A stretch of DNA of 32,000 nt from Microcystis aeruginosa NIES-843 (GCF_000010625.1 NC_010296.1:750001-782000); one strand, 5' to 3'. Shown: positions 5,013 to 32,000, counted from the stretch's first letter. The notes: a model not told the origin generated them from the sequence alone. Made by a program: numbers and translations.

Positions 5013-5080
5013 GGGTTTGCGGCAAAAAGTTTGTTGGTGGGTGTGGATTTCCAGGTAAAAAATCTTTACAGAGTCCCCCG
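5013..5080 (-). repeat. degenerate fragment of MITE family B (heptamer-tract end)
   Basis: GGGTTTGCGGCAAAAAGTTTGTTGGTGGGTGTGG... matches the terminal sequence of the MITE copies at 18008 and 23991. The internal part is deleted or diverged. Confidence 0.45.
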
Positions 5081-5473
5081 ACAGTTAAACCAATCGAATA
5101 ATTATAAATTTTTATCAAGAGGTGCGGCCAGATCGAATAATCGTCGCTAGAATGAGCCTAGTTGTCAGAAATTTAGTTAAATAAGGTTTTTGGCAATATG
5201 CTAATTTGGGCAGGTTTTGCTCTAGGCTACAATGGGTCAGGCTATCGTGCTAATAGGTACGATACCAAACTTGCTAATGCTTACCATAGATCGCTTTCTG
5301 CCTAATACCATTTTTCTTTATTCGCGTCACAACGAATACAGGCTTGGCAAGCATTCGAGCGTGGATGTCTGTCATGGATTTAGAAATTTGGTATAACAAA
5401 TACGTCCTTTCGTATTGTCCATCTTTGACTCACCAATAGAAATCAAATCCTTGTCTCATCTAAATACTACTCT

Positions 5474-5773
5474 ATGAATACCCCCACCCCCCCAGCCACC
5501 ACAACCGATCAGCAACCATCCCCGTCTTTTGTTACTACCAACCCCTCAATCAATCGAAAAGTCGCTTTTGCATCAGTCGGTGCTGCACTAGGCTCTATAA
5601 TCAGCCTCTTTTTAGCAACCTTTTTGCTGAACCTTCCATTTCTAGCGAATATTTCACCAGAAGATAAGGGTACACTCAAAACCAGTTTGACTTCAGGTAT
5701 TACTGCACTGGTAACGCTGTTAATTGGTTACCAAACGAAACCTGGAACCGGAGATGGTATAAGAGAAGAATAG
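5474..5773 (+). CDS. hypothetical small membrane protein (two predicted TM helices)
   Basis: 99-aa ORF with a Pro/Thr-rich N-terminus and two hydrophobic stretches. No family recognised. Its TAG stop lies inside the target duplication of the adjacent IS. Confidence 0.4.
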   Translation: MNTPTPPATTTDQQPSPSFVTTNPSINRKVAFASVGAALGSIISLFLATFLLNLPFLANISPEDKGTLKTSLTSGITALVTLLIGYQTKPGTGDGIREE

Positions 5774-5920
5774 CTTGGGGAGCATCTCACTTATGCAATG
5801 AGTATTAATACTTATAGCCGTCAACAACTAGAAAATCTTCAACTTGATCACAAAGAGAAATGAGATTATAATAGTTATAACTTACAATTCAGAATAGCTC
5901 TCGATGGGAGGAATAATTCA

Positions 5921-6130
5921 ATGTTATCAGAAAATGAAAAAAGAATTAAAGAGTTATGTCAAGAGTTAGGGCAATGTCTCTATGAGCAATCCCCAATTAA
6001 TAAATTTAATAACTTGGGAGAGATAGAGGAGACAGTCAGAGATTTAATGATTCAGTATGTCAACCCAGAAATCGGTATTTTTTTGTCAAAACAAGCACAG
6101 GAGAAACAGCTGGTCGGACAAGAAAAGTGA
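5921..6130 (+). CDS. IS transposase orfA (N-terminal part)
   Basis: 69-aa ORF homologous to orfA of the second IS copy (31043-31252). It ends about 43 nt after a T-run slippery site. Confidence 0.65.
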   Translation: MLSENEKRIKELCQELGQCLYEQSPINKFNNLGEIEETVRDLMIQYVNPEIGIFLSKQAQEKQLVGQEK

Positions 6131-6984
6131 AAAGTATTTTGGGGGAATTACCAATTACAGAAAAACAAGCGAAAAAATTAGAAATAAAGTCTCGGACTCA
6201 GATGAGTCCAATGTTAGAGAAGAACTGTTTGCTATTAAGTGGCGATGAATCCTACGAGAAATCGGCGCAGAAAATCAAATCATTGACAGGGATTGCTGTT
6301 TCTCACAGTACCCAACAACGCCTCGTACATCGCTATGCTTTTGAAGAATTACCGTCTAACCCAGAAGTGGAAGTGGAAGAAATGAGCCTAGATGGCGGTA
6401 AGGTACGACTAAGAACTGCCAAGGGAAAAGCCTTAATTTGGCGTGATTATAAAGCAGTGAGTTTTCATCAACTGGGGGTAGCGGCTTTTTTTCAAGATAA
6501 CTCAGCTTTATTAGATTTGGTTAATTCTCAAGTTTTGGCCAAGCCTTTAATTTGTTTAGGAGATGGACATGATGGTATCTGGAATTTATTTCGTGAGATA
6601 GGAGAGAAACAGGAAAGAATTGAAATATTGGATTGGTATCATTTAATCGAAAACCTCTATAAAGTTGGCGGGTCATTCCAGCGAATTGAGGAGGTAAAAT
6701 GTTTTCTCTGGAAGGGGGAAGTGGATGCTGCTATCTCCTGTTTTGAGGGATGGTCAGAGCCGCAAGTGGAGAATTTTATTATTTATTTGAACAAGCATAA
6801 ACATCGAATTGTCAATTATGGTTATTTGCAGGCAGAGGGCATTTCGATTGGCTCTGGCTCTGTTGAATCAAAAATTAAACAAATTGCTCATCGTCTTAAA
6901 ATTACTGGTGCAAGTTGGGAATCTGGTAATGTACCGCAAGTCCTTCGTCATCGCTGTGCTTATCTAAATGGTTGCCTTTTTTAA
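6127..6984 (+). CDS. IS transposase orfB (DDE catalytic part), in the -1 frame relative to orfA
   Basis: Contains the motif LGDGHDGIWNLF...ILDWYHLIENL, typical of ISKra4/ISLre2-type transposases. The -1 frame is already open and homologous to copy 2 from about 6076 (YFFVKTSTGETAGRTRK). Confidence 0.7.
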   Translation: MKSILGELPITEKQAKKLEIKSRTQMSPMLEKNCLLLSGDESYEKSAQKIKSLTGIAVSHSTQQRLVHRYAFEELPSNPEVEVEEMSLDGGKVRLRTAKGKALIWRDYKAVSFHQLGVAAFFQDNSALLDLVNSQVLAKPLICLGDGHDGIWNLFREIGEKQERIEILDWYHLIENLYKVGGSFQRIEEVKCFLWKGEVDAAISCFEGWSEPQVENFIIYLNKHKHRIVNYGYLQAEGISIGSGSVESKIKQIAHRLKITGASWESGNVPQVLRHRCAYLNGCLF

Positions 6985-7065
6985 CTTTTTTATTGAGATC
7001 ATTAAGCATTTCTACTTATTGCAAAGGTGAGATGCTCCCTAAACTGAATAGCTTGTAGCAATCTT

Positions 7066-7164
7066 GTAGGGTGCGTTCCCTAATCTGGCTCCTACTTCTC
7101 CACTAATAGATTTTTGGGGAACGCACCATGCACATTGATTGAAACTGTGGGTTAAAGTGCGATG
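7066..7164 (+). repeat. structured ~100-bp repeat (family C), copy A
   Basis: GTAGGGTGCGTTCCCTAAT..(variable)..TTTTGGGGAACGCACCATGCACATTGATTGAAACTGTGGGTTAAAGTGCGATG. An 11-bp perfect stem pairs 7070-7080 with 7117-7127. Repeated at 12702-12760 and 13547-13644. Confidence 0.7.
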
Positions 7165-7276
7165 TGGGCTAATCTGGCTAACAGGCTTTTGGGCGTGATA
7201 TAGGGAAAAGTTCTGGCGATTGCGCCTAAATAGAGTGATATGCCGAAAGTTAACCCATATCGTTAGTCTGGAGAGT

Positions 7277-7316
7277 GTTATACATAAAGTTGGTGTATAA
7301 TTTTTAGTTATACATA
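7277..7316 (+). promoter_or_regulatory. candidate promoter/operator of the R-M operon
   Basis: Extended -10 TGTATAAT at 7294-7301, about 65 bp upstream of the R gene ATG. It is flanked by two direct copies of GTTATACATA (7277-7286, 7307-7316). TTATACA / TGTATAA form an inverted repeat. Confidence 0.35.
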
Positions 7317-7365
7317 CATTATCTGTAGCAGAAAGTGGAAGATTTAAGTAAAGAAAAGGCACAAT

Positions 7366-8202
7366 ATGACTAAAAAGAATCAATCAAAAAGATTAACGAA
7401 TCAACATAAAGAGTCTAAAGGTGTAGTTGGTATATTTGGAGATGAAGCAAAATCACACGACATAACTGTTGGAAAAATTTCACTTTTTGTAATTGAACAG
7501 CTTGAAAAGGAGTTTCCTCAATTATCTTTTCAATACAAAACGAGCATAAAAAAAGAAGAAATAAACGAAGCATTAAAGAAAATTGACCCAGAATTAGGAC
7601 AAACACTTTTTGTATCAAATTCAAGTATTATACCCGATGGTGGAATAATAGAAGTAAAAGATGATAACGGTAATTGGAGAATCGTTTTAGTTTCGGAAGC
7701 TAAACATCAGGGGAAAGACATTGAAAACATCAAAGCAGGAAAACTTGTAGGAGCAAAAAATGATCAAGATTTGATGGCTGCTGGTAATGCGATAGAAAGA
7801 TCCCATAAAAACATATCTGAAATCGCTAATTTGATGTTATCTGAATCTCATTTTCCCTATGTATTATTTCTAGAAGGCTCAAATTTTTTAACAGAAACTA
7901 TTTCAATTAAAAGACCCGATGGAAGGGTTGTAACGCTTGAATACAATTCAGGAACGCTAAATAGATTAGATAGGTTAACTTCTGCAAATTATGGAATGCC
8001 CATTAATACCAATTTGTGTAAAAATAAGTTTGTCAAGCATAAAGATAAAACAATTATGCTTCAAGCAACTTCTATATACACACAAGGAAATGGCGAAAAA
8101 TGGGATGTCAAAAAAATGTTTGATATTATGCTTGAAATTTCTAAAACCTCTCTTAAAGTATTAGGCAGTGAGATATTTAATCAGATAACCAAAAGTAAAT
8201 AA
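7366..8202 (+). CDS. ecoRIR: type II restriction endonuclease, EcoRI family (predicted GAATTC specificity)
   Basis: 278 aa, collinear with my recollection of E. coli R.EcoRI over its whole length (QSKRLTNQHK.., SFQYKTSIKKEEINEALKKIDPELG, PDGGIIEVKDD..LVSEAKHQGKD, MAAGNAIERSHKNISEIANLMLSESHFPYVLFLEGSNF). The catalytic D91, E111 and K113 sit at the same positions. Confidence 0.9.
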   Translation: MTKKNQSKRLTNQHKESKGVVGIFGDEAKSHDITVGKISLFVIEQLEKEFPQLSFQYKTSIKKEEINEALKKIDPELGQTLFVSNSSIIPDGGIIEVKDDNGNWRIVLVSEAKHQGKDIENIKAGKLVGAKNDQDLMAAGNAIERSHKNISEIANLMLSESHFPYVLFLEGSNFLTETISIKRPDGRVVTLEYNSGTLNRLDRLTSANYGMPINTNLCKNKFVKHKDKTIMLQATSIYTQGNGEKWDVKKMFDIMLEISKTSLKVLGSEIFNQITKSK

Positions 8203-8239
8203 CTAAAACAAAGATTTATTAAATCAAAATAGGTTGAAA

Positions 8240-9250
8240 ATGGCAAGAAATGCAACAAACGAATTATTACAAAAAGCTAAAAAATCAAAAAGTGACGAGT
8301 TTTATACACAGCTTTCAGATATAGAAAGCGAATTACAGCATTATAAAAGTCATTTTGAAAATCAAGTAGTTTATTGCAATTGCGATGACCCCCGAATTAG
8401 TAACTTTTTTAATTATTTTACCTCAAATTTCAATGAATTAGGTCTTAAAAAAATAATAACATCTTGTTATAGAGAGCAAGTAAAAAATTTATTTAATACA
8501 GAAGAAGATGAAAAAGGGTTTTTCTTTGAATATACAGGTACAGAAGGGGAAAAAAACAAACCAAGTTCAACTGACCTAGTTTACTTTAATGGAGATGGTG
8601 ATTTTCGTAGTTCGGAAAGCATTGAACTATTAAAGCAGTCCGATATTGTTGTTACCAATCCCCCATTTTCATTATTCAGAGAGTATGTAGCTCAATTGGT
8701 TAAATACGATAAAAAGTTTTTGATAATTGGAAATATTAATGCAATAACCTATAAAGAAATTTTCAAACTTATTAAAGAAAACAAGGCGTGGTTAGGAATA
8801 AATCTTGGTAGAGGTATTTCAGGTTTTATTGTACCTGAACACTATGAACTATATGGAACAGAAACTCGAATAGATAACTCTGGTAATAGAATAATCTCAC
8901 CGAACAATTGTTTATGGCTTACTAATTTAGATAATTTTAAGCGGCACGAAGATATAAAACTTACAAAAAGATATTTTGGCAACGAAGTTCAATATCCAAA
9001 ATATGACAATTATGATGGGATTAATATTAATAAAACACAAGACATACCAATAGATTATAAGGGATATATGGGGGTGCCAATAACATTTTTACATAAATTT
9101 AATCCCGACCAATTTGAAATAATTAAATTCAGGAAAGGGAATGATGATAAAGATTTATCAGTAAATGGGAAATGTCCGTATTTTAGAATACTAATAAAGA
9201 ATAAACGAATACAAACTGAATATATTGATTTAACTGACAAAGAAAGATAA
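8240..9250 (+). CDS. ecoRIM: N6-adenine DNA methyltransferase, M.EcoRI family
   Basis: The N-terminus MARNATNELLQKAKKSKSDEFYTQ and the motif SDIVVTNPPFSLFREY..KYDKKFLIIGN match M.EcoRI as I recall it. The R-then-M order is the same as in the EcoRI operon. The ORF track starts at TTG 8234, but ATG 8240 fits the homolog. Confidence 0.9.
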   Translation: MARNATNELLQKAKKSKSDEFYTQLSDIESELQHYKSHFENQVVYCNCDDPRISNFFNYFTSNFNELGLKKIITSCYREQVKNLFNTEEDEKGFFFEYTGTEGEKNKPSSTDLVYFNGDGDFRSSESIELLKQSDIVVTNPPFSLFREYVAQLVKYDKKFLIIGNINAITYKEIFKLIKENKAWLGINLGRGISGFIVPEHYELYGTETRIDNSGNRIISPNNCLWLTNLDNFKRHEDIKLTKRYFGNEVQYPKYDNYDGININKTQDIPIDYKGYMGVPITFLHKFNPDQFEIIKFRKGNDDKDLSVNGKCPYFRILIKNKRIQTEYIDLTDKER

Positions 9251-9524
9251 TGTATAACAAATCGTTGTACCTGACATTTTAGCTCTTCGGTTTGTGTTAT
9301 GCAATGGACGAGGGTTATAAGGGATGGAACCATTATAGAGAAAGGCATTTAGCGATTTTTGTCAATTGTTTTTGATCTAGAGCGAACTAATCAATTAAAT
9401 CTCTTGCCAGATAAGGATTTAGTCGATTTATGCCCCCTATCGAACCATACCAAGTAACGAAGAACCGACATTGTTCCGCTACGATCCAAAATGTCGGTGA
9501 AATCGATCGTTATGCTCCAAAGCT

Positions 9525-9550
9525 AGTGCGATACCGAAGGCACTGGGTAG
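9525..9550 (+). repeat. fragment related to the 3' extension of repeat family C (copy D)
   Basis: AGTGCGATACCGAAGGCACTGGGTAG versus AGTGCGATGCCGAAGGCACTGCGTAG at 13636-13661. Confidence 0.4.
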
Positions 9551-9702
9551 CCCCCCCTAGATGGGGTTGGAGGGCTTGCTTTAGGGCGCGATACTGGGTT
9601 ATAGGGGTTTTCAAGATTAGTGCTATTTCTCATCAAATCCTATGCTAGACTGATGGTAAGATCAGTTATCAACTACTACAAAAAGTTGAATTGGTAAAAT
9701 AC

Positions 9703-9912
9703 ATGAGTACATCAGCAAAATCACTAGAAGAACTGGTGAGACAATTATCGCCCCAGTTAAAGGTTGAAGTACAAACGTTTGTAGAGTCACTTTTAAGTAA
9801 ATCTAACCAACCTATAAAACGTAAACTCCGTCAAGACTGGGCAGGGACGCTTAAAACTGATTACACATCAATTGAGTTACAGCATCTTGCAGTTGAATGG
9901 AGAAATGGCTAG
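9703..9912 (+). CDS. putative antitoxin partner of a PIN-domain toxin
   Basis: About 70-aa ORF (ATG 9703; the track starts at TTG 9691) that overlaps the downstream PIN ORF by 16 bp. The C-terminal LRQDWAGTLK..TSIELQHLAVEWR pattern resembles antitoxins found upstream of cyanobacterial PIN genes. Confidence 0.55.
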   Translation: MSTSAKSLEELVRQLSPQLKVEVQTFVESLLSKSNQPIKRKLRQDWAGTLKTDYTSIELQHLAVEWRNG

Positions 9913-10154
9913 TGTTTCTTCTGGATACGAATATTTGGCTAGAACGCTTATTAGGACAAGCACAGGCGGAGGTTGTTGCGGAGCTACTTGATACGCTCTC
10001 ACCGTCTGATATGTGTATGACTGATTTTACTTTACATTCTATCGCGGTGATCTGCAATCGGCTGAATCAACGAGAGGTTTTTATCAAATTTGTGGATGAC
10101 GTTTTGATTGATGCTGGTGTTGTACTGGTCAGTATTCCTGCTAATGGGACTTAA
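9897..10154 (+). pseudogene. PIN-domain (VapC-like) toxin, C-terminally truncated
   Basis: It has the N-terminal PIN signature VFLLDTNIWLERLL but is only 85 aa. The reading frame runs into repeat family C and is then cut by the IS701-family insertion at 10145. The distal acidic PIN residues are absent. Confidence 0.6.
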
Positions 10155-10187
10155 ACAAATTTCAAGCCCAAACAAAGCCTAAACTGG

Positions 10188-10369
10188 GGGAGCATCTCAC
10201 TTACGCGATAAGTAATTATACTTAGCCTAAAAGCCACTCTTAATCGTGTCTTGGAACGAAATAGAGGCTTTTAAAGACTGCGTACATGGAGAATTAAAAC
10301 AAGAATTACCCTCGAAAAGCCTATTTTTCCACTAAGTATTTATGCTCATTGCAAAGGTGAGATGCTCCC
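10188..10369 (+). mobile_element. 182-bp MITE (family A) derived from the ISKra4/ISLre2-like IS, copy 1
   Basis: It shares both termini with the IS at 5778-7039 (GGGAGCATCTCACTTA.. / ..TTGCAAAGGTGAGATGCTCCC) and has no ORF. Flanked by the 8-bp direct repeat TAAACTGG (10180-10187, 10370-10377). Identical to 28326-28507. Confidence 0.85.
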
Positions 10370-11467
10370 TAAACTGGCTTTGTAAGCGGCAAACACATCC
10401 CGATTCTCGGTCAGCCACTCAAAGAAACGGAAAGACATCGCTGTCCGAAAAGCTTCCAAGGCTTCCACAAAAGTGTTTAAAGGTCGATTCGCCCACTGCC
10501 TTTGCAATCCCCCAGTTAACTTATGCCACAGGATAAATGTATAGGCACAAAACACCAGGATAAAATGACGAAGTAAGCTTCGTTTATCCCTGACTTGATA
10601 TTCCCTTAACCCTAACCATCCTTTGGCTTCTCGGTAGAATACTTCCACCCAATTTCTTTCGGTGTAAGTCCTCACTATCCACGAAGCTGTTACTGTATCT
10701 GCCTCAACTACATTGGTGATGAAATAGTCCACCTCTGTGGCTTTTTCCATTGAACTTGCATTCATGACGATCGCCAAGTTCCTTTCTCCTTCTAGTTGAG
10801 ATATTTTCGCTCTGAATACCGCTACCCAAACCGTTTTCTCTTTATCTAGATTTAGGGTGATTTTCTCCCAATCCTTTTCTGATAGGCTTTTTGCTAGTTG
10901 CTCAAGCTGGATTGTTTCTTCCACACCCCCTTCTTTTTCAATAATTACTTTTCGATTTTTTGCCAATCCTCCTAAGTATTTTAGCTTTCTTTCTTCCAGG
11001 GCTTTGAGAAAATTTGTGTTGTTGCCATAACCAGCATCTATTAAGACGATTTTCGGTCGATAGCCTCTGGTTAAGCTCCGGTCAATTAAATCTATCGCTA
11101 TCTCTGGTTTCTTCTTAAATTCTTTGTCTTCTTTCCCCTCGGCTAAGGAACTAGCCGGTTGATAAATTTCAATGTCTAGGGGGACACTTTTTTTGCCGTC
11201 GTAGAGATGAGTAGTGACGGCGACTATTCCGTTGTCTGTCTTGCCAATTTCTCCTAGGTACTGCCTGCCAACTCCGGCGGTCAGATTGCCACTTTTTCGA
11301 TGTCCTGAGTCATCGACAATCAGGGAAAATCCTCGGGGGATTTGCGTCTGGCGGCATTGGTTCATCACTTGCAACCGACATTCATTCACCTGACGGTCTG
11401 ACCAAGGAGATTCGGTCAAAAAGTGATGTAATCGGTTATAAACTACTCCGACGGCATTATTGGCCAT
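10346..11467 (-). pseudogene. IS701-family DDE transposase, interrupted (largest fragment)
   Basis: Carries LHHFLTESPWSD and the DDSG..DAGYG.. pattern. The ancestral ORF is restored as complement(10162-10179, 10370-11515, 12520-12624), about 422 aa (MKETTPAAMPPCFDRWCRRFD...FRQYLGGLLGESERKNLTQMANNAV...ASLGFVWA), by deleting both MITEs plus one copy of each target duplication. Confidence 0.8.
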
Positions 11468-11515
11468 TTGAGTGAGGTTTTTCCTCTCACTTTCCCCTAA
11501 TAATCCTCCTAAATA

Positions 11516-12513
11516 GGGCTGGCTGAATAAATCTAAAAACCTTGTTGGATAAGACTTTTGGACTTTTTTCCCCTCAAAAAGTACCAGATATGGGAGTGAT
11601 CAGGGGTAAATTCAGGGACTTTTTCCCTGAAAATTAGGTAATTGACCCCCTCAAAATCGGTAAAACCCCACACCCGTTACAGTAGAGCAGGAAGTCGCCT
11701 TCCCACCCCCTGCTTCAAAACCGGACTTACGACTTTCGCCGTATCCGGCTCCTGAGTAACTAGGCTACTGTCATTAGTAGAATAATAATGGGAATTATTA
11801 TTTCCTTGTCTATTCAACCCTCTTGGCTGTATCCCCACCAGACAAGATTGTTGGTTTTAGGGCGTATATGACCGTTGATTGTTGCTTAGACTTCCTAGTT
11901 ACCCGTCCTTTGTCAGCATATCTTTGATATTACTCAAAGCCTTGGCTTTTAAGGACATCCTCTCCCTCTATTGACTTGCGGATGGTTTCCTACTGCCCCG
12001 AACGGGCAGAGTCAATCAGGGTTACTTCGTTCCCTATAACCATTGGTTGAACCCTTAGGATGATACTGTCCACAACAGAGTAACGGGAATGCCTTACTGA
12101 TAGTGGTATGAGCTATCAGCCCCAACTCTGTTAACTTTTGTTTCGAGCCTGTCAGCCTTTTGGCTCGTGGGTGTTGACGATGGTTAATTCGTATCTTCGC
12201 CCCAGGGCTATCCATAGGTTCTGGCTCAACGGGTTTCTGATTTAGGCTATCAGATACCGCTTTTTTTTTCCTCGCTCACTACCTCAGATGTACCAAGTCT
12301 AAAGCAGCAGGAAATGCCGTCACTCTAGGCATCTAGAGGACAGGACTAAGGTTATTACTAACCCGCACCTGTAGGGTTATAAAGTTATCAAGGTACTACA
12401 TTTACCAAGCGGCTAATCCTCTAAACGTCTTACTGTCTAGTTTCTAGCCAACGAATCGCACCACACCCCACACCCTACACCCTGCCCCTAGGAAAAACTT
12501 TTTCAGCAGACCC
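11516..12513 (+). mobile_element. MITE family B copy, itself carrying a group II intron
   Basis: 11516-11675 and 12462-12513 align with the complete copy at 23778-23991. Flanked by the direct repeat TAAATA (11510-11515, 12514-12519). Confidence 0.7.
11676..12461 (-). ncRNA. ORF-less group II intron (786 nt)
   Basis: The minus strand starts GTGCGA (12461 downward). Domain V is GAGCCGGAUACGGCGAAAGUCGUAAGUCCGGUUU (complement 11718-11751), with the AGC triad, a 2-nt bulge and a GAAA loop. A domain VI hairpin with a bulged A follows, and the 3' end reads ..CUACUGUAAC at 11676. Domain IV is a short AT-rich stub with no RT ORF. Confidence 0.8.
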
Positions 12514-12701
12514 TAAATATTGTCTGAAGCCGTTTTTTTGCGCTTCGTTTTTGAAGCAATTGTCAAACCGCCGACACCATCGGTCAAAGCATGGGGGCAT
12601 TGCGGCTGGGGTTGTCTCTTTCATCGCTGATCTTTCAACGTAAAGTGCTTACTCTTTAACGATTATACTCGATTTGATCTTTATTTGGCGTTTAAGTCCC
12701 A

Positions 12702-12760
12702 CTAATAGATTTTTGGGGAACGCACCATGCACATTGATTGAAACTGTGGGTTAAAGTGCG
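12702..12760 (+). repeat. repeat family C, copy B (3' part; the 5' part lies left of the IS701 insertion at about 10113-10144)
   Basis: CTAATAGATTTTTGGGGAACGCACCATGCACATTGATTGAAACTGTGGGTTAAAGTGCG is identical to the corresponding part of copy A. Confidence 0.65.
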
Positions 12761-12814
12761 GTCGCCGATCTTAATAAGCTATATTAACAACAATACTTAA
12801 AGAGAAGGCTTAAA

Positions 12815-13117
12815 ATGGTTAAATCAACTTTGTACAGGACAGCAAAAGTCCTACCGGGAAATAGAATTGAAATTGAATCTCCAGATCTGACTGTAGGACA
12901 AACTGTTGAGGTAGTTATTTTGGTTGAAGAAGTTAGTTCTGATTCTTCTACCAGCGAATATATCTCTCCATCCTTAAAACAGCGTCTTGCTTTTCTGAAG
13001 TTACCAATGACTGAACGGAGGAATATTCTCAAAAGTCAAGCCGATATAATGCTCTCTCACTATCAACAAGATTCTGAATGGCAGGAGTTAATGGCAGGTG
13101 ACATCATTGAGTATTAA
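12815..13117 (+). CDS. putative MazE-like antitoxin
   Basis: 100-aa ORF overlapping the downstream MazF/PemK ORF by 20 bp. Small acidic C-terminal half. Assignment rests on operon context. Confidence 0.6.
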   Translation: MVKSTLYRTAKVLPGNRIEIESPDLTVGQTVEVVILVEEVSSDSSTSEYISPSLKQRLAFLKLPMTERRNILKSQADIMLSHYQQDSEWQELMAGDIIEY

Positions 13118-13472
13118 CCCTGAGCTGCCAAAACGTGGAGAAATTTGGTTAGTCAACTTCGATCCTACTGTTGGTGCAGAAATCAAAAAATTGCGTCCTG
13201 CCGTCGTCATCAGTTCCGATTCAGTAGGAAAGCTTCCTATCAAGCTTATTGCTCCTATTACAGACTGGAAAACATATTTTTCAGCAAATTTATGGCACGT
13301 TAAAATTGAACCTAACAGTATCAATGGATTGAATAAAGCTTCTGCAATTGATACTCTTCAACTAAGAGGGGTGGATTTACAAAGGTTTATTCGTAAATTA
13401 GGAAGCGTTTCTGAAATTACAATACTGGAAATTGTAGCCTCCATTGCTACTGTAATCGAATTTGAGGTCTAA
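13098..13472 (+). CDS. mazF: MazF/PemK-family mRNA interferase toxin
   Basis: PKRGEIWLVNFDPTVGAEIKKLRPAVVISSD is the canonical PemK/MazF N-terminal motif. About 120 aa. Confidence 0.85.
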   Translation: MTSLSINPELPKRGEIWLVNFDPTVGAEIKKLRPAVVISSDSVGKLPIKLIAPITDWKTYFSANLWHVKIEPNSINGLNKASAIDTLQLRGVDLQRFIRKLGSVSEITILEIVASIATVIEFEV

Positions 13473-13546
13473 CAAATCATTGCACCCGACCAACAAAAAG
13501 CGACTGATGCTGGAAAATAGACCAAAATGGCGGGTGAATTCAGCTG

Positions 13547-13661
13547 GTAGGGTGCGTTCCCTAATGCAAGTCCTACTGCTCCAGCGCTCGATTTTGGGTA
13601 ACGCACCATGCACATTGATTGAAACTGTGGGTTAAAGTGCGATGCCGAAGGCACTGCGTAG
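13547..13661 (+). repeat. repeat family C, copy C (with 3' extension)
   Basis: It has the same arms and the same 3' core as copy A, but a different sequence between the arms. The extension CCGAAGGCACTGCGTAG is shared with 9525-9550. Confidence 0.7.
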
Positions 13662-13834
13662 CAGTACGCCGCTCTGGTGGGTTAGGTTGACGGCAGACCC
13701 CCAACTGTGATCTTTGACTTCATGCCAATTTGTGCGGACTGTATTCAGGTGTTACCTGCTGTGATAGTTAGTAAGTGAGCCTGTTCGTTGAGTTGAGGAG
13801 TAAAATAGGAGAAGTCCTAATCTAAGATTTAGTA

Positions 13835-14110
13835 ATGGATAGAAGCATTATAGAACGGCAACCGCTACTTGAAGCAGTCAAGGCTCTCCCTGATGAGGCT
13901 TTAGTGGAACTGTCTAATTTTCTGGACTATCTTCGCTATAAAGCAGCCCATCAAAGAGAACTGACCACTCATTCTTCTAGTTTTCTGCTTGCAGTTGCAG
14001 GTTTAGGCAACTCTGGTCAACAGGATATTTCAGAACGTGATGAAGAGATTCTAGGCAATGAGATTGATCCGGTGTCCGGCTGGAATCTTAACCCAAGCAA
14101 TTCAGTATGA
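13835..14110 (+). CDS. putative VapB-type antitoxin
   Basis: 91-aa ORF with a 4-bp ATGA overlap onto the downstream PIN gene. The N-terminal LPDEALVELSNFLDYLRYK helix motif is common in cyanobacterial antitoxins. Confidence 0.6.
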   Translation: MDRSIIERQPLLEAVKALPDEALVELSNFLDYLRYKAAHQRELTTHSSSFLLAVAGLGNSGQQDISERDEEILGNEIDPVSGWNLNPSNSV

Positions 14111-14520
14111 CGGCGATACTTGACACCAGTTTTTTGTTTGCCTTGACCGATCAGGGCGATCGCAATCATCAACGGGTGTTGGCTATTGCTCAAAGCGTGA
14201 ATGAGCCATTGGTTCTACCTGTCGTTGTCCTGCCTGAGGTCTGCTATCTGATTGCATCAAGATTGAGCCACCAAGCAATGCGCCGTTTTGTATCCAGTAT
14301 GACACCTGATGCGGTTCAAGTTGAACCTGTAATCCCAGAAGACTTGGTACGAGTGCATGAGATATTGGAACAATATGCTGACAATCAGCTTGACTTTACA
14401 GATGCAGCGATCATTGCCATAGCTGAAAGGCTTACTATTACTCGCGTTTACACACTTGATCGCCGAGATTTTTCGATTATTCGTCCAAGTCACTGCGATT
14501 ACTTTGAGTTATTTCCTTGA
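14107..14520 (+). CDS. vapC: PIN-domain ribonuclease toxin VapC
   Basis: 137 aa with the full set of PIN acidic residues in the expected contexts (ILDTS, LPE, FTDAA, TLDRRDF). Confidence 0.85.
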   Translation: MTAILDTSFLFALTDQGDRNHQRVLAIAQSVNEPLVLPVVVLPEVCYLIASRLSHQAMRRFVSSMTPDAVQVEPVIPEDLVRVHEILEQYADNQLDFTDAAIIAIAERLTITRVYTLDRRDFSIIRPSHCDYFELFP

Positions 14521-14792
14521 ACCACCAGCTAACACTGCGTGGCAGCGGACGGTCGCAATTCGTCGCTGCCGAGCTTGCTTTCTAATGCCGTCGCTGATTT
14601 GAGCCGTTAGCGATCGAGCGCGCTACGCACCGATCGGGTTCTGGACTTCCCCATTGACAAAAAGCCATAACCTGTGCTGCAGGAAGGATTAACAGAATTT
14701 CCGATACCCCCTTACTGGGTACAAATTAAGAAAACCTCTAATAAATCTAACGCCGTACAAACTCCTCGTCAATAGCAAATCAGGTTATACTT

Positions 14793-14851
14793 CACACCCC
14801 ACACCCCACACCCCACACCCTACCCCCACGAAAAACTTTTTCAGCAGACCC
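14793..14851 (+). repeat. MITE family B fragment (heptamer-tract end)
   Basis: CACACCCCACACCCCACACCCCACACCCTACCCCCACGAAAAACTTTTTCAGCAGACCC matches the right end of copies 23778-23991 and 11516-12513. Weaker similarity may extend upstream to about 14725. Confidence 0.55.
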
Positions 14852-14873
14852 TACCTATCGATCCCATTTTTAC

Positions 14874-18007: not shown

Positions 18008-18200
18008 AGGGTTTGCGGCAAAAAGTTTTTCGTGGGGGTAGGGTGTGGGGTGTGGGGTGTGGGGTGTGGGGTTTTACCAGTTTTGAGGTGGCCAATTACC
18101 TAATTTTCAGGGAAAAAGTGCCTAAATTTCCCCCACTTTTTGATTTCAAAAAAGCCTAAAGATATTATCCAACAAGGTTTTTAGCTTTATTCAGTAAACC
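18008..18200 (-). mobile_element. MITE family B copy (inverted orientation)
   Basis: GGGTTTGCGGCAAAAAG..(GGGGTGT)n..TTATTCAGTAAACCC aligns end to end with 23778-23991. It begins 2 bp after the hydantoinase stop codon. Confidence 0.75.
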
Positions 18201-19527: not shown

Positions 19528-20223
19528 TTAATTTAAACCGGGGGGCAATTTTTCCCGACACTGTTGATGAATTTCCCCGATTCTAGCAAACAACCAGGGA
19601 TATTTTTGACGATAACTGGGAATTAGAGCCAGAGGACTGAGTAGGGCAGTGGCGGCAATATCGGCTACACTTAATTTATCCGCCACCAAATAGGGCTGAT
19701 TTTGCCAATATTCTAGAATCTTGAGGGCATTTTCTAGTCGCTCCTCCGCTAGTTTTACCCTTGCCGGGGTGATTTTATATTGTTGTCCCACGATATTAAT
19801 AATTATTTGACTACTCAGGGAAGGATCGATCGCTTTTCCCTCTCCGGCGCGATAATTATAATAGACAAATCTAGTCGCTACTCCAATACTTTCATCTAAC
19901 CAATCCTCTAGTAACCAAGCTTGATTTTTCTCCTTTTCCCCAGCGGGAATAAAAGAGGGGAAAGGAACTACTTTTTCTAAATATTTTAAAATGGCAGTAG
20001 AATCGGCAATAATCTCATCTGCTGCCATTAAAACGGGGACAGTGGTTAACCCTTTGGTTAGGGACCTGAGTTTGAGAATATGTAGTCCGGGGGTGAGATT
20101 TTCTACTTGGTAATCAATCCCCTTATAACCTAGGGCTAAACGAGCTTTGCGACAGTAATGAGATGTGCTAAATTGAAGTAAAAGCATTAAGTGTTGTTGG
20201 TTGCTATAGTAGTTATCAGTCAT
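19528..20223 (-). CDS. glutathione S-transferase family protein
   Basis: Thioredoxin-like GST N-domain (LLQFSTSHYCRKARLALGYKGIDYQ..TVPVL) and a helical C-domain. The likely true start is the internal ATG at 20187 (MLLLQF). Confidence 0.7.
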   Translation of the reverse strand: MTDNYYSNQQHLMLLLQFSTSHYCRKARLALGYKGIDYQVENLTPGLHILKLRSLTKGLTTVPVLMAADEIIADSTAILKYLEKVVPFPSFIPAGEKEKNQAWLLEDWLDESIGVATRFVYYNYRAGEGKAIDPSLSSQIIINIVGQQYKITPARVKLAEERLENALKILEYWQNQPYLVADKLSVADIAATALLSPLALIPSYRQKYPWLFARIGEIHQQCREKLPPGLN

Positions 20224-20310
20224 CAGTTATCAGTTATCAGATTTGAGTTTTAAGTTAACTGATCACTGTTTACTGATCACTGTTTACTGAATTGGCAATA
20301 GGTCTATACT

Positions 20311-23777: not shown

Positions 23778-23991
23778 GGGTTGGCTGAATAAATCTAAAA
23801 ACCTTGTTGTATAAGACTTTTAGACTTTTTTCCCATCAAAAAGTGCCAGACATTGGGGTGATCGGGGGGGAAATTTAGGCACTTTTTCCCTGAAAATTAG
23901 GTAATTGACCCCCTGAAAATGGGTAAAACCCCACACCCCACACCCCACACCCCACACCCTGCCCCCACGAAAAACTTTTTGCCGCAAACCC
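23778..23991 (+). mobile_element. MITE family B, complete copy
   Basis: Termini GGGTTGGCTGAATAAA.. / ..TTTTTGCCGCAAACCC, an internal (CCCCACA)n tract and no ORF. 7-bp direct repeat TAGTATA at 23771-23777 and 23992-23998. Confidence 0.8.
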
Positions 23992-24002
23992 TAGTATAGT
24001 TT

Positions 24003-24998: not shown

Positions 24999-25000
24999 TG

Positions 25001-25153
25001 GTGTGGGAAGTGGGGTGTGGGGTGTGGGGTGTGGGAAGTGGGAAGTGGGAAGTGGGGTGTGGGGTGTGGGGTGTGGGGTGTGGGGTGTGGGGTGTGGGGT
25101 GTGGGAAGAATAAATAAAAATAATCTCCTGACGACCGACGACCGACGACCGAC
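25001..25153. repeat. heptanucleotide tandem repeats (GGGGTGT / GGGAAGT, then ACGACCG)
   Basis: Counted by eye: 25005-25108 holds 10 GGGGTGT and 5 GGGAAG(T) units. 25131-25153 holds (ACGACCG)x3. Confidence 0.9.
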
Positions 25154-27851: not shown

Positions 27852-28325
27852 TTTTAAGACCTCCCAGTTTCGCTCTAAAGTTGATCAGGCCATCTCGAAG
27901 TGCTTACTATCCAAAGACGCTAACCAACTTAATCAAACTTAATATTGTCTTTTGTGTCCTCCCTTGTACAGCCATATTGTAACATTCTTGACCAAAAACT
28001 AACGAGTGCAAATAAAAACTTTTGCTCCTTTAGATGGGCTTGTTTTTGACTCAATTGTTCACTCTAGAATTAGCAATAGACCCTAGAGGTATGTGTTTAG
28101 TCTTTTAGACTACTCGCTTGCTGGCAAAATATGACCAATGTATTTGATTAACTGGACTGGGAGCAACAAAAATTAATTTTTCCCACTGTCTGAGTAGATT
28201 GAGCCTTGGCCCTACTTTTGCCTGTAAATCAGGGAATAATAAGCCTAAGATTCGCTGGCTGTCCTTGTTATTTATGAGTGACTATCCCGATTTTTCCGCT
28301 TATGGCTATCAGGTAAGCAAAATCC

Positions 28326-28507
28326 GGGAGCATCTCACTTACGCGATAAGTAATTATACTTAGCCTAAAAGCCACTCTTAATCGTGTCTTGGAACGAAAT
28401 AGAGGCTTTTAAAGACTGCGTACATGGAGAATTAAAACAAGAATTACCCTCGAAAAGCCTATTTTTCCACTAAGTATTTATGCTCATTGCAAAGGTGAGA
28501 TGCTCCC
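28326..28507 (+). mobile_element. 182-bp MITE (family A), copy 2
   Basis: By eye, base-for-base identical to 10188-10369. No flanking direct repeat here (GCAAAATCC versus GATCGTGTT). Confidence 0.85.
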
Positions 28508-29804: not shown

Positions 29805-30200
29805 TTGATTAGTTTAGATATTTGGTTACAAGAAAACCAGGATTTTCCTAAATGGCTTTATTTAACTATCTCAACACTTCTTTACATTAACCTCATCATT
29901 CCTATCCACTCTATTATAGTTGATTATCCACCTTCTCTACAGGACTATCCCTACCGAGGTCTTTATCAAATAATTCATTCTATTTTTCTTTAGTGTTATG
30001 ATTTCCCTATATTTTGAACTGGTAGATAAAATATGAACAGGATAATTAAGGTTGCTTTAGTTGCCTTACTATGGATAATTGTGACTACTTCCGCAGTTGA
30101 CCTCGGAGGAGATACATCACGTCGTTTGGACATGGCTCATGCTTGGTGGACAGGTCAACCGGAAATGGGAGCATCCCAGTTTTGCAATGAGTAAAAATAC

Positions 30201-31127
30201 TCAGGCAATATCGCCGTTGAGATAAGCACAACGTAGCTTCAAATACTGAGGAACATTCTCTGCTTTCCATTGTGCTCCCACAATTTTCATTCTTGCACCT
30301 ATTTGCTTAATCTTTGACTCTACACTTCCAGAACCGATGCAAATCCCTTGTGATTGATAGAGTTCGTAATTGGGTATTCTTTCTCGATGTTTATCGACAT
30401 ATTTGGTGAAATTTATAGCCTGTTTCTTTTTGCATCCCTCTAATTCCTCTAAAACTCTTTTCACCTCTCCTTTCCATAAATTCTCTTTGATTCTATTCAG
30501 ACGCTTGTTTGACCCGCCTATTTTCTTCATATTCTCTACTAAATGATACCAATCCAATATTTCTCTCCTTTTAACACCGATTTTCTCCATCAGATTCCAC
30601 ACCCCATCATGACCATCTCCTAAACAGGTGACTACCTCTGTTAAGGGCTGACGGTTCACCCATTCCAGTAATTCTTCATTTTGCTGAAAAAATCCCGCAC
30701 ATTCTTGACCATGCAGACTTACTGCTTTGTAATCTCGACCTTGACTCGGTTGTCCTTTGGGCGTTCTGATTCTGACTTTTCCGACCTCTACACTCAATGC
30801 TTCTACCGGACTCTTTGCTTCTGCTTCCTCAAATTTATATCTTTGTACAAGCCTCTGTTGACTACTGCCTGAAACTGCCATTCCTGTCGCCATTTTGATA
30901 GCTTTTTCCGCATCTTCAAAAGAGACTTTAGCCACTGCTCCTAAGCAACATTTCTCCAGCATGGGACTTAATCGATTATTCTTGCTTAATCCTAGTTTAT
31001 CGGCTTGTTTCTCGCTTATCTTGACTTTCCCTATGATACTGCTTACGCTTTTGGTTCGCCCTGCTTGGGTTCCTGTTGCTGATTCAAAAAAAAATTGCCT
31101 ATGGCAGGACCCAATGTAGTCAGCCAA
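30201..31127 (-). CDS. IS transposase orfB (copy 2), in the -1 frame relative to orfA
   Basis: Carries CLGDGHDGVWNLM..ILDWYHLVENM..GSGSVESKIKQIG and is collinear with 6127-6984. Confidence 0.7.
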   Translation of the reverse strand: MADYIGSCHRQFFFESATGTQAGRTKSVSSIIGKVKISEKQADKLGLSKNNRLSPMLEKCCLGAVAKVSFEDAEKAIKMATGMAVSGSSQQRLVQRYKFEEAEAKSPVEALSVEVGKVRIRTPKGQPSQGRDYKAVSLHGQECAGFFQQNEELLEWVNRQPLTEVVTCLGDGHDGVWNLMEKIGVKRREILDWYHLVENMKKIGGSNKRLNRIKENLWKGEVKRVLEELEGCKKKQAINFTKYVDKHRERIPNYELYQSQGICIGSGSVESKIKQIGARMKIVGAQWKAENVPQYLKLRCAYLNGDIA

Positions 31128-31252
31128 TGGTCTCGCAGGGCGGTTTCAATGCCCTCAAAGCTACGTAGTTGTTCTTCTGGGGTATTATCGACTAGAATTT
31201 GAGCAATGGCTTTTAAATGTTGATCTAGTTGTTCTTTTTGGTCTGTATTCAT
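31043..31252 (-). CDS. IS transposase orfA (copy 2)
   Basis: 69-aa ORF homologous to 5921-6130. It ends about 40 nt after the T-run slippery site. Confidence 0.65.
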   Translation of the reverse strand: MNTDQKEQLDQHLKAIAQILVDNTPEEQLRSFEGIETALRDHWLTTLGPAIGNFFLNQQQEPKQGEPKA

Positions 31253-32000
31253 GATTCTACCGTTTAATTGTTTCTCTTTATTTTGCCTTAGCTAACGTTT
31301 TTAGTCTCTAAGCATTTATACTTATGGCAAAATTGGGATGCTCCCACCGGAAATATCCTTAACATCGGATTATAAACCTGAAGTTCGCGGAGAACAGTGG
31401 ATGGTTTTTGGAGTTGATAATAAACCTTACATTTTTTATGAAGTAGGACAATCGGTATTAATGCTTCCTGCTGATTGGATAGGAACTCAATTACATCAAT
31501 ATTTTCCTGATATAGGTGAAAAAGATTTCCGTCGTTTGTCCGTAACTTTTTTGACTTTTATTCCTCTTAACGTTGCTACAGTTATTGCTTGTTTTTGGTT
31601 ACTAAGAATTTTTAAAGTTAACGAAAATCTAGCGGCTTTTAGTAGTATTATATGGTTAATTGGTAGCACTTTTCTACACTATGCCCAAATTCCATTTCAG
31701 AACAATCAGGTGCTATTATTGGTTATACTCGGGTATGGTTGTGCTTTAGTCGCTTCCCTCGATCAAAAACCTCTTTTTGCCCTACTTGGTGGATTATGCT
31801 TAGGATTGGCCATTTTAATTCGGGTTAGTTCTATTCTTCATGTTCTAACTGTGTCTCTGTTCTTTATTACTTACCTTTTTTACAAGTATCGACATAGAAA
31901 AATTATCTTTCAGTACGGATTAATCTGGTTGGGAGGCTTTCTCCCTCTATTTTTATTGGGGAGATTGCTCGATTATATCCGCTATGGAAGCCCCTGGATG

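Follow-up and report, generated by a model that had tools for sequence, protein, structure and literature searches.

A GTAG-tagged repeat, probably of the REP/BIME kind, at the boundaries of defence gene cassettes in Microcystis

A stretch of 32,000 nucleotides from Microcystis aeruginosa NIES-843 (NC_010296.1:750001-782000; hereafter, the window) contains an array of restriction-modification (R-M) and toxin-antitoxin (TA) cassettes, all on the plus strand and in the order EcoRI R-M, DUF2281/PIN1 (with a truncated PIN gene), MazEF, and DUF2281-like/PIN3, with copies of a structured repeat located ahead of the array and between cassettes. We conclude that this repeat is probably a Microcystis-specific composite element of the kind represented by GTAG-tagged repetitive extragenic palindromes (REPs) and bacterial interspersed mosaic elements (BIMEs), which marks the 3' ends of co-oriented cassettes and provides homology for recombination. 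The unit fits the REP/BIME class in four respects, namely its tag, its palindrome, its position, and its mosaic clustering.

Two complete copies and the 3' part of another were confirmed in the window (Table 1). A 41-nt core, ACGCACCATGCACATTGATTGAAACTGTGGGTTAAAGTGCG, has three exact matches on the plus strand (at 7121, 12720, and 13601), with none expected in shuffled sequences, and the arm GGTGCGTTCCC and its complement were found at 7070/7117, 12716, and 13551/13597, the last pair having one mismatch. All copies share one orientation, which is also that of the genes. The repeat unit is composed of an invariant 5' GTAG, a stem of 11-12 bp (GGTGCGTTCCC/GGGAACGCACC), a variable loop (31-32 nt in most copies, range 31-36 nt), and a conserved tail of about 36 nt that terminates in GTGCGAT, the palindrome having a total length of 58-62 nt. 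A preliminary description of the window had reported that the arms and the core were identical between copies and that the segment between the arms differed. This was correct for the core and for the loop, but not for the arms, since copy 3 carries the deviating arm GGGTAACGCACC.

The set analysed comprised 143 loci (1.03 Mb), window included, all chosen by the presence of the repeat itself. When one genome per species was scanned with an exact 20-nt core as query, the repeat was confined to Microcystis apart from two hits, with 1-4 copies per species-representative genome, and a metagenome scan with the right arm as query yielded at least 120 stretches. A contig from a 'Crocinitomicaceae' metagenome-assembled genome (L010, JBIPMW010000441.1) carries the Microcystis repeat, a MazEF cassette, and the leader sequence listed as module P in Table 1; it is probably mis-binned Microcystis DNA. 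The single Geobacteraceae match in the core scan looks like a chance occurrence.

The GTAG tag is carried by about 143 of the ~150 forward copies and its columns are invariant in the aligned copies, while each arm position is at least 97% conserved. In a conservation profile built over 172 distinct contexts, values increased from 0.55 or less to 0.9 or more precisely at the GTAG adjoining the left arm; high conservation spanned the arms plus approximately 24 nt and fell after GTGCGAT, 36 nt beyond the right arm. Upstream of the tag, the sequence was either cassette-specific, a linker containing the highly iterated palindrome HIP1 (GCGATCGC.ATCTT), or a 33-nt sequence termed module A, and the unit was often preceded by one of the latter two. 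Units were also found in tandem without an intervening gene, at a spacing of 79-133 nt, and a short-loop relative of 30 nt with the same stem, which looks like a classical REP, was detected in one locus (L061:5488-5517; GTAG GGTGCGTT AATGAAATGT AACGCACC).

The position of the units with respect to genes was strongly asymmetric. Of the nearest upstream open reading frames (ORFs), 178 were on the same strand and 14 on the opposite one, and the median distance from stop codon to GTAG was 60 nt; for the nearest downstream ORFs, these counts were 136 and 37, and the median distance to the start was 188 nt. The neighbours were surveyed through a scan of 150 distinct clusters of proteins encoded no more than 1.5 kb from a unit. 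The families with the most cluster matches were PIN, PemK/MazF, DUF2442, PG_binding_1, DUF433, DEAD-box helicase, DUF5615, HicA, DUF3368, and UPF0150, most of which are TA families. Other neighbours included the EcoRI endonuclease and methyltransferase, a second R-M pair, an N6_N4 methylase, a type I-like fusion, TIR, AIPR, ApeA-HEPN, DUF29, and YafQ/RelE proteins, and housekeeping genes were seen at the edges of the arrays.

The proposal that the repeat lies at cassette boundaries, with cassette content varying there between strains, was borne out by comparison of the island in more than ten genomes. Between a CcmK-like gene and a GFO/IDH/MocA oxidoreductase gene, both the sets and the orders of cassettes differ: EcoRI, PIN1, MazEF, and PIN3 in the window; EcoRI, PIN1, UPF0175/DUF3368, a hydrolase, MazEF, and DUF433/DUF5615 in Microcystis viridis NIES-102; EcoRI, a second R-M system, MazEF, PIN1, and a second MazEF in BLCC-F210; and only EcoRI and PIN3 in M. 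ichthyoblabe. The MazF protein of the window is also present in NIES-102, where a syntenic array has the same flanking genes, and PIN1 lies ahead of MazEF in the window and behind it in BLCC-F210. The 3' flank of the EcoRI cassette has a constant end (...CCAAAGCTAGT), which is followed, depending on the genome, by the PIN1 cassette, by module A and a unit, by a unit alone, or by a 34-nt mini-module; filled and empty alleles of the unit were both found at this point. These comparisons show that the units form common boundaries, and that strains differ there in which cassettes are present and in what order.

Contrary to what had been suggested, the repeat was not found at every boundary: the EcoRI|PIN1 junction has only module A, and the junction of PIN3 with the chromosome has only a motif resembling module A. 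The stretch at 9525-9550, which had been taken for a piece of the repeat, corresponds to the sequence that follows copy 3 (module A) and contains neither hairpin nor core; a full unit is present precisely at this point in other strains. The stretch at 10113-10144, also listed as a repeat fragment, is PIN coding sequence, collinear with the intact gene of another strain. The related motif reported after the third TA cassette (14533-14546) matches the second half of module A at 12 of 14 positions, a weak likeness, and is possibly a decayed junction.

Breakpoints between loci fell at A[GC]TGCG in 32 of 280 cases, an approximately 10-fold enrichment over a background of 1.2%, and many breakpoints were also located at the GTAG edge. 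The cassette junctions observed were AGT|GCG, GTGCGAT|, GTGCGATG|, ..GCCG|, and others. For each pair of polymorphic sites inside the unit, all four haplotypes were present, and the copies are therefore recombinant mosaics. This pattern in the sequences indicates that homologous recombination or gene conversion acts on the copies, without a single crossover point.

Mosaic intergenic blocks built from a few short modules, like those of the Microcystis arrays, are also formed by the Neisseria intergenic mosaic elements (NIMEs), in which repeat sequence (RS) units are bounded by dRS3. NIMEs are concentrated beside variable cassette loci and are thought to promote recombination. They differ from the Microcystis unit in that their sequences are unrelated and that dRS3 is a target of an IS110-like recombinase or of phage and has no GTAG palindrome.

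The affinity with REPs rests on several shared features. Like the GTAG REPs of E. coli, Pseudomonas, and cyanobacteria (GTAG-12/15/16), the Microcystis unit has a conserved unpaired GTAG 5' of an imperfect palindrome and is extragenic, found shortly after an ORF and between genes of the same direction. Enlarged loops also occur in the cyanobacterial GTAG-15 family, and, as in BIMEs, units cluster in mosaic or tandem arrays with variable linkers. GTAG-tagged REPs, some of them large-looped, have been described in cyanobacteria (Di Nocera et al. 2013, PMC3733652), mostly downstream of ORFs and between unidirectional or convergent genes (PMC3733652); Microcystis is absent from the species listed in that survey (PMC3733652). 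A search of the available literature for the repeat strings returned no relevant paper. In E. coli, the tag is essential for binding and cleavage by TnpAREP (PMC3333891), an enzyme that cleaves single strands of DNA at C^T close to REPs and also performs strand exchange, which can explain BIME variability (PMC3333891).

A gene for a REP-associated tyrosine transposase (RAYT) was found in the same genomes. When the ORFs of the fetched loci were searched by phmmer with a RAYT sequence as probe, one ORF family was matched. Against NCBIfam NF047646 (cutoff 80), this ORF scored 124.7 bits in truncated form and 176.2 bits over the whole profile once reconstructed across a frameshift, and its database relatives carry the Pfam Y1_Tnp domain and are named REP-associated tyrosine transposase. 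In Microcystis, the gene is located within TA/R-M arrays and is flanked on both sides, in inverted orientation, by sister GTAG palindromes (GTAGGTTGGGTT...AACCCAAC), and these flanks recur in other contigs bearing homologues. The copies were disrupted either by a MITE (miniature inverted-repeat transposable element) inserted after ...STSRQH or by a frameshift, with the HUH motif PDHIH changed to PAPIH. RAYT homologues in contigs of other cyanobacteria (L146, L147, and L149) also appear split.

The earlier suggestion of a small mobile element thus comes close with respect to the REP hallmarks and to the RAYT gene in such arrays, but the repeat does not stand outside every known class, since it can be placed among the REP/BIME elements, of which it is an unusual variant. 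Several observations weigh against this assignment. The Microcystis unit departs from REPs in its atypically long palindrome (with the long loop), REP palindromes being short (20-40 nt), in its conserved tail, in its low apparent copy number, as judged from the exact core in species representatives and from the ~18 kb of housekeeping DNA of the window, which contains no copy, and in its uniform polarity and location, as nearly all copies follow the cassette orientation instead of forming head-to-head dimers, and units lie mostly in TA, R-M, and abortive infection arrays in the loci examined. The defence-gene neighbours were, however, counted in loci selected by the repeat, and their prevalence applies to this set. 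The 3' edges of conservation are scattered over more than 20 positions, with no single cleavage site, which fits recombination or indels. In addition, the RAYT gene is flanked by a palindrome of a different type (GTAGGTTGGGTT) from this repeat and is disrupted in every Microcystis contig seen.

Since the copies are recombinant mosaics, the units most likely act as portable homology, through which homologous recombination or gene conversion adds, removes, and reorders cassettes. From the disrupted RAYT gene present in such arrays with its flanking sister GTAG palindrome, we infer that the family originated as a substrate of a Y1 HUH transposase of the RAYT type and may once have spread in that way. 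Microcystis has among the largest known loads of defence and TA genes, and its genomes are notoriously plastic. The assembly of such arrays and the exchange of small modules between strains are not explained by integrons or by the abundant insertion sequences (IS). A REP-type element at cassette 3' ends with strain-level turnover would offer a concrete and testable handle on this process, and the roles proposed for REPs and RAYTs would extend past housekeeping intergenic regions. The unit could also be used as a sequence tag to find and delimit the variable islands of defence genes in genomes of Microcystis and in metagenomes from blooms.

A more speculative possibility, to which we attach a low probability, is that GTAG palindromes and a RAYT-type HUH transposase form, or until decay of the enzyme formed, a single-strand "cut and rejoin" platform that captures and reshuffles defence and addiction cassettes in Microcystis. 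Such a platform would be a functional analogue of the integron in which a Y1 transposase takes the place of the tyrosine recombinase, and the unit would be the recognition site at the cassette end. Some cassette junctions agree with the C^T rule of E. coli TnpAREP, in the form CT(T), such as GATCT^T and CAGCT^G at the MazEF cassette, and others, such as AGT|GCG, depart from it.

The repeat may also be viewed primarily as an RNA element, that is, as a hairpin in the 3' untranslated region that terminates or stabilises the mRNA of the upstream cassette and insulates neighbouring TA operons, its location at cassette ends being a by-product of travelling with each cassette. The short distance to a same-strand stop codon and the stable hairpin predicted for copy 1 (-36.1 kcal/mol, z = -2.6 against shuffles) are in line with this view, and the GTAG-REP survey reports that REPs elsewhere act in this manner (PMC3733652). 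The fold of copy 3, in contrast, is no better than that of shuffled sequences (z = -1.1). No compensatory change was found in the stem among 32 aligned copies or among some 143 distinct hairpins, and the substitutions in the latter comprised about 21 that break a pair and about 7 that give a wobble pair. No Rfam family reached the gathering score at the copies, with only chance-level matches in E-value mode, and a scan detected neither terminator-like nor promoter-like sites at the copies, with no T-run after the stem. The structured non-coding RNA and the intrinsic terminator envisaged in the preliminary description are thus not supported, the first by the negative covariation test and the lack of an Rfam family, the second by the absence of a U-tract and by the loop of 31-36 nt, where a terminator has a short one. 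The lack of compensatory changes, of an Rfam family, and of terminator-like sites indicates that the unit is conserved as a sequence, and its maintenance as an RNA fold is without support, rather than disproved, given the low divergence of the copies. The invariant unpaired GTAG and the tail likewise point to recognition of sequence over shape. We therefore regard a primary RNA function as rather unlikely; by analogy with the REP literature, the 3' hairpin of a REP-type unit may nevertheless stabilise or end the upstream transcript.

Two other functions were considered for the unit and rejected. A promoter in the tail is not plausible, as TTGATT and TAAAGT are just 12 nt apart and the promoter scan was empty at the copies. 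Minus-strand ORFs that run through the unit cluster across loci, but about half of the copies have an in-frame stop and the length of the T-run varies, so these ORFs are derived from the repeat and do not represent a gene.

A quite unlikely explanation is that the units are passive scars, each cassette having arrived with a long duplication of its target, a single ancestral stretch between genes, with no activity of the repeat. An R-M gene of M. aeruginosa NIES-843 with 88-bp direct repeats, for which PCC 7806 has an empty site, was interpreted as an "insertion with long target duplication" (Furuta et al. 2010, PMC2853133), and this published case may describe the same architecture as the present repeat. 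The likeness to the insertions described by Nobusato, Furuta, and Kobayashi is considerable: R-M genes lie within direct repeats of tens to hundreds of bp without a mobility gene, the empty site elsewhere keeps one repeat copy, the Microcystis 88-bp case is itself listed, and serial insertions into one target would give arrays in which cassettes and repeats alternate. The Microcystis repeat differs in being a dispersed family with REP hallmarks that also bounds TA and abortive infection cassettes. The occurrence of the family at several unrelated chromosomal loci per genome and in many contexts, its sharp GTAG-defined 5' edge, its conserved palindrome with short-loop relatives, and the tandem units without cassettes make a randomly duplicated target unlikely.

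Integron-like attachment sites analogous to attC, with a fixed core around AGT|GCG at which an unlinked site-specific recombinase would excise and insert cassettes, appear very unlikely. As in the Vibrio chromosomal integron with its species-specific Vibrio cholerae repeats (VCR/attC), an imperfect-dyad repeat of ~100 bp and of one polarity, often at the cassette 3' end, lies between small co-oriented cassettes; many of these are TA cassettes, strains differ by whole cassettes, and repeat identity is high within the genus. Moreover, the AGT|GCG junction recurs at the EcoRI 3' end, at the PIN1 3' end, and at the end of the unit, and falls within the motif at which breakpoints are enriched. However, no R''/R' box pair (RYYYAAC/GTTRRRY) was found on either strand in five junction regions, and the region 7000-14800 had 0 against a shuffle mean of 0.8; L''/L' boxes are also missing, the junction is not G|TT, and the 3' edges are spread as noted above. 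The unit is conserved in sequence without structural covariation, which is the reverse of attC, it is missing at some boundaries, and its copies are mosaics with many internal crossover points. The cassettes differ as well, in that many of them bring a promoter-like leader (55-200 nt), of which the shared module P is an example. Partial Pfam scans and a few phmmer probes, a search of limited sensitivity, detected no tyrosine or serine recombinase in the window or the 143 loci; the scanned ORFs of the window contained only DDE transposases and no recombinase domain, and six-frame ORFs of the window and of the fetched loci gave no XerC-like or resolvase-like phmmer match, although an unlinked gene may exist. 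A literature search on Microcystis with integron or attC retrieved nothing relevant. A cassette-recombination site of the integron kind, one of the options initially put forward, is thus not supported, in view of the absence of R''/R' boxes, of a G|TT junction, and of an adjacent integrase.

Finally, it is extremely unlikely that the unit is a MITE derived from an IS with a DDE transposase, with the 11-bp arms as terminal inverted repeats. The perfect inversion of the arms, the abundance of MITEs in Microcystis (including several in the window), and the presence/absence polymorphism of the unit at the EcoRI 3' end speak for this reading, but there is no target-site duplication, GTAG on the left and ATGCAC... 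on the right being conserved parts of the unit and not variable flanks, no IS end in the window corresponds to the arms, and the 178:14 orientation bias relative to upstream genes would not be expected.

The PIN1 toxin gene had been described as reading into the repeat and being truncated there. The region 9897-10144 can be aligned base by base to the intact PIN gene (140 aa) of another strain, and the toxin is truncated at about codon 83 by a deletion of ~236 nt linked to an IS701-family element. This deletion took away the end of the PIN gene together with the flank that follows it, and from copy 2 the left arm and most of the loop. The PIN gene does not, therefore, read into the repeat. A target duplication of the IS701 element (CTAAT) was considered and discarded, as its flanks are not contiguous in the alignment with the other strain, which implies that a deletion was involved.

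Table 1. Coordinates of repeat copies, cassettes, modules, and mobile elements. Positions are those of the window, except for the RAYT pseudogene copies.
Feature	Position	Strand	Remarks
Repeat copy 1, complete	7066..7161	+	Ends GTGCG; GTAG 7066-7069; left arm 7070-7080; loop 7081-7116; right arm 7117-7127; tail 7128-7161
Repeat copy 2, 3' part only	12701..12760	+	Loop end; right arm 12716-12726; tail 12727-12760
Repeat copy 3, complete	13547..13641	+	Core and arm matches; GTAG 13547-13550; left arm 13551-13561; right arm 13597-13607 (one mismatch); tail 13608-13641
Module P	7166..7340	+	Shared leader of ~170 nt ending in a TATAAT-like box; upstream of EcoRI
EcoRI R-M cassette	7366..9250	+	EcoRI-type restriction endonuclease 7366-8202; methyltransferase 8234-9250
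MITE-like insertion of ~190 bp	9283-9466		GCTCTTCGGTT...AACGAAGAACCGA; in the 3' flank of the EcoRI methylase; GACATT duplication; absent in other strains
Module A'	9525..9551	+	AGTGCGATACCGAAGGCACTGGGTAGC; at the EcoRI|PIN1 junction
PIN1 cassette	9691..10154	+	DUF2281 antitoxin 9691-9912; truncated PIN toxin 9897-10154
IS701-family element	10146..12700	-	Terminal GGGACTTAAAC repeats
MITE of 189 bp, two copies	10181-10369; 28319-28507		98% identical; first copy nested in IS701; terminal inverted repeats of ~45 nt (GGGAGCATCTCAC...)
Group II intron, ORF-less	~11672-12461	-	Rfam domain V/VI match 11676-11753 (55 bits); 5' GTGCG at 12461
MazEF cassette	12815..13472	+	Antitoxin 12815-13117; MazF/PemK toxin 13098-13472
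Module A	13636..13669	+	AGTGCGATGCCGAAGGCACTGCGTAGCAGTACGC; overlaps the GTGCG end of copy 3
Second palindrome, degenerate	13670..13705	+	CGCTCTGGTGGGTTAGGTTGACGGCAGACCCCCAAC; likeness by eye to the GTAGGTTGGGTT..AACCCAAC REP type
PIN3 cassette	13835..14520	+	DUF2281-like antitoxin 13835-14110; PIN toxin 14107-14520
A-like motif	14533..14546	+	CACTGCGTGGCAGC; 12/14 match to the second half of module A; weak
RAYT pseudogene copies	L061:3327-3635; L073:7103-7267; L143:1791-2111; L144:1536-2030		

Besides the array, the window contains genes for Raf1 and a CcmK-like bacterial microcompartment (BMC) protein, and HIP1 sites, features that mark it as cyanobacterial. Module A, which follows copy 3, is a separate sequence of 27-33 nt with the pattern AGTGCGAT[A/G]CCGAAGGCACTG.GTAGC. 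In many loci, as at 13643-13666, it resembles GTGCGAT|CGC (HIP1) or GTGCGATGCCG|CTCTGG plus an insert of 23-24 nt that contains a hairpin (GCCGAAGGCACTGCGTAGCAGTAC) and is bounded by short repeats; forms with and without the insert both occur, a pattern that recalls the very small nested repeats known from Nostoc. A BLAST search with the 158-nt A-unit-A sequence against plasmid and phage collections gave no match. Module P is found elsewhere upstream of TIR, hydrolase, and second R-M cassettes, of a gene for a 635-aa coiled-coil protein, and of other non-TA cassettes. A further segment of ~150 nt, module Q, follows the BMC gene (~5080-5210) and is duplicated within the array in NIES-102 (L001:8374-8560).

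The group II intron is inserted in a (CCCCACA)n heptamer tract within the IS701 transposase gene, where it lies between the segment coding for the N-terminus (~12500-12625) and the main ORF (10346-11467). The end of the unit, GTGCG, equals the intron 5' consensus, but a link between the two was rejected, as the only intron of the window is on the opposite strand and has unrelated exons. The ends of the 189-bp MITE also bound IS copies of ~1.2 kb at 5772-7045 and 30166-31346, the ORFs of which are weak UPF0236 matches. The MITE-like element of ~190 bp present at 9283-9466 in the window is also found in NIES-102 (L001 ~6997-7183), where it splits the PIN1 gene, with a GAGTCG duplication. Tandem tracts of 7 nt, (CCCCACA)n/(GGGGTGT)n and (TCAGTTA)n, are present at 2543-2621, 14785-14858, 18035-18087, 20191-20283, 23924-23997, and 25000-25122, embedded in repeats of 60-130 nt that lie in both orientations around housekeeping genes.

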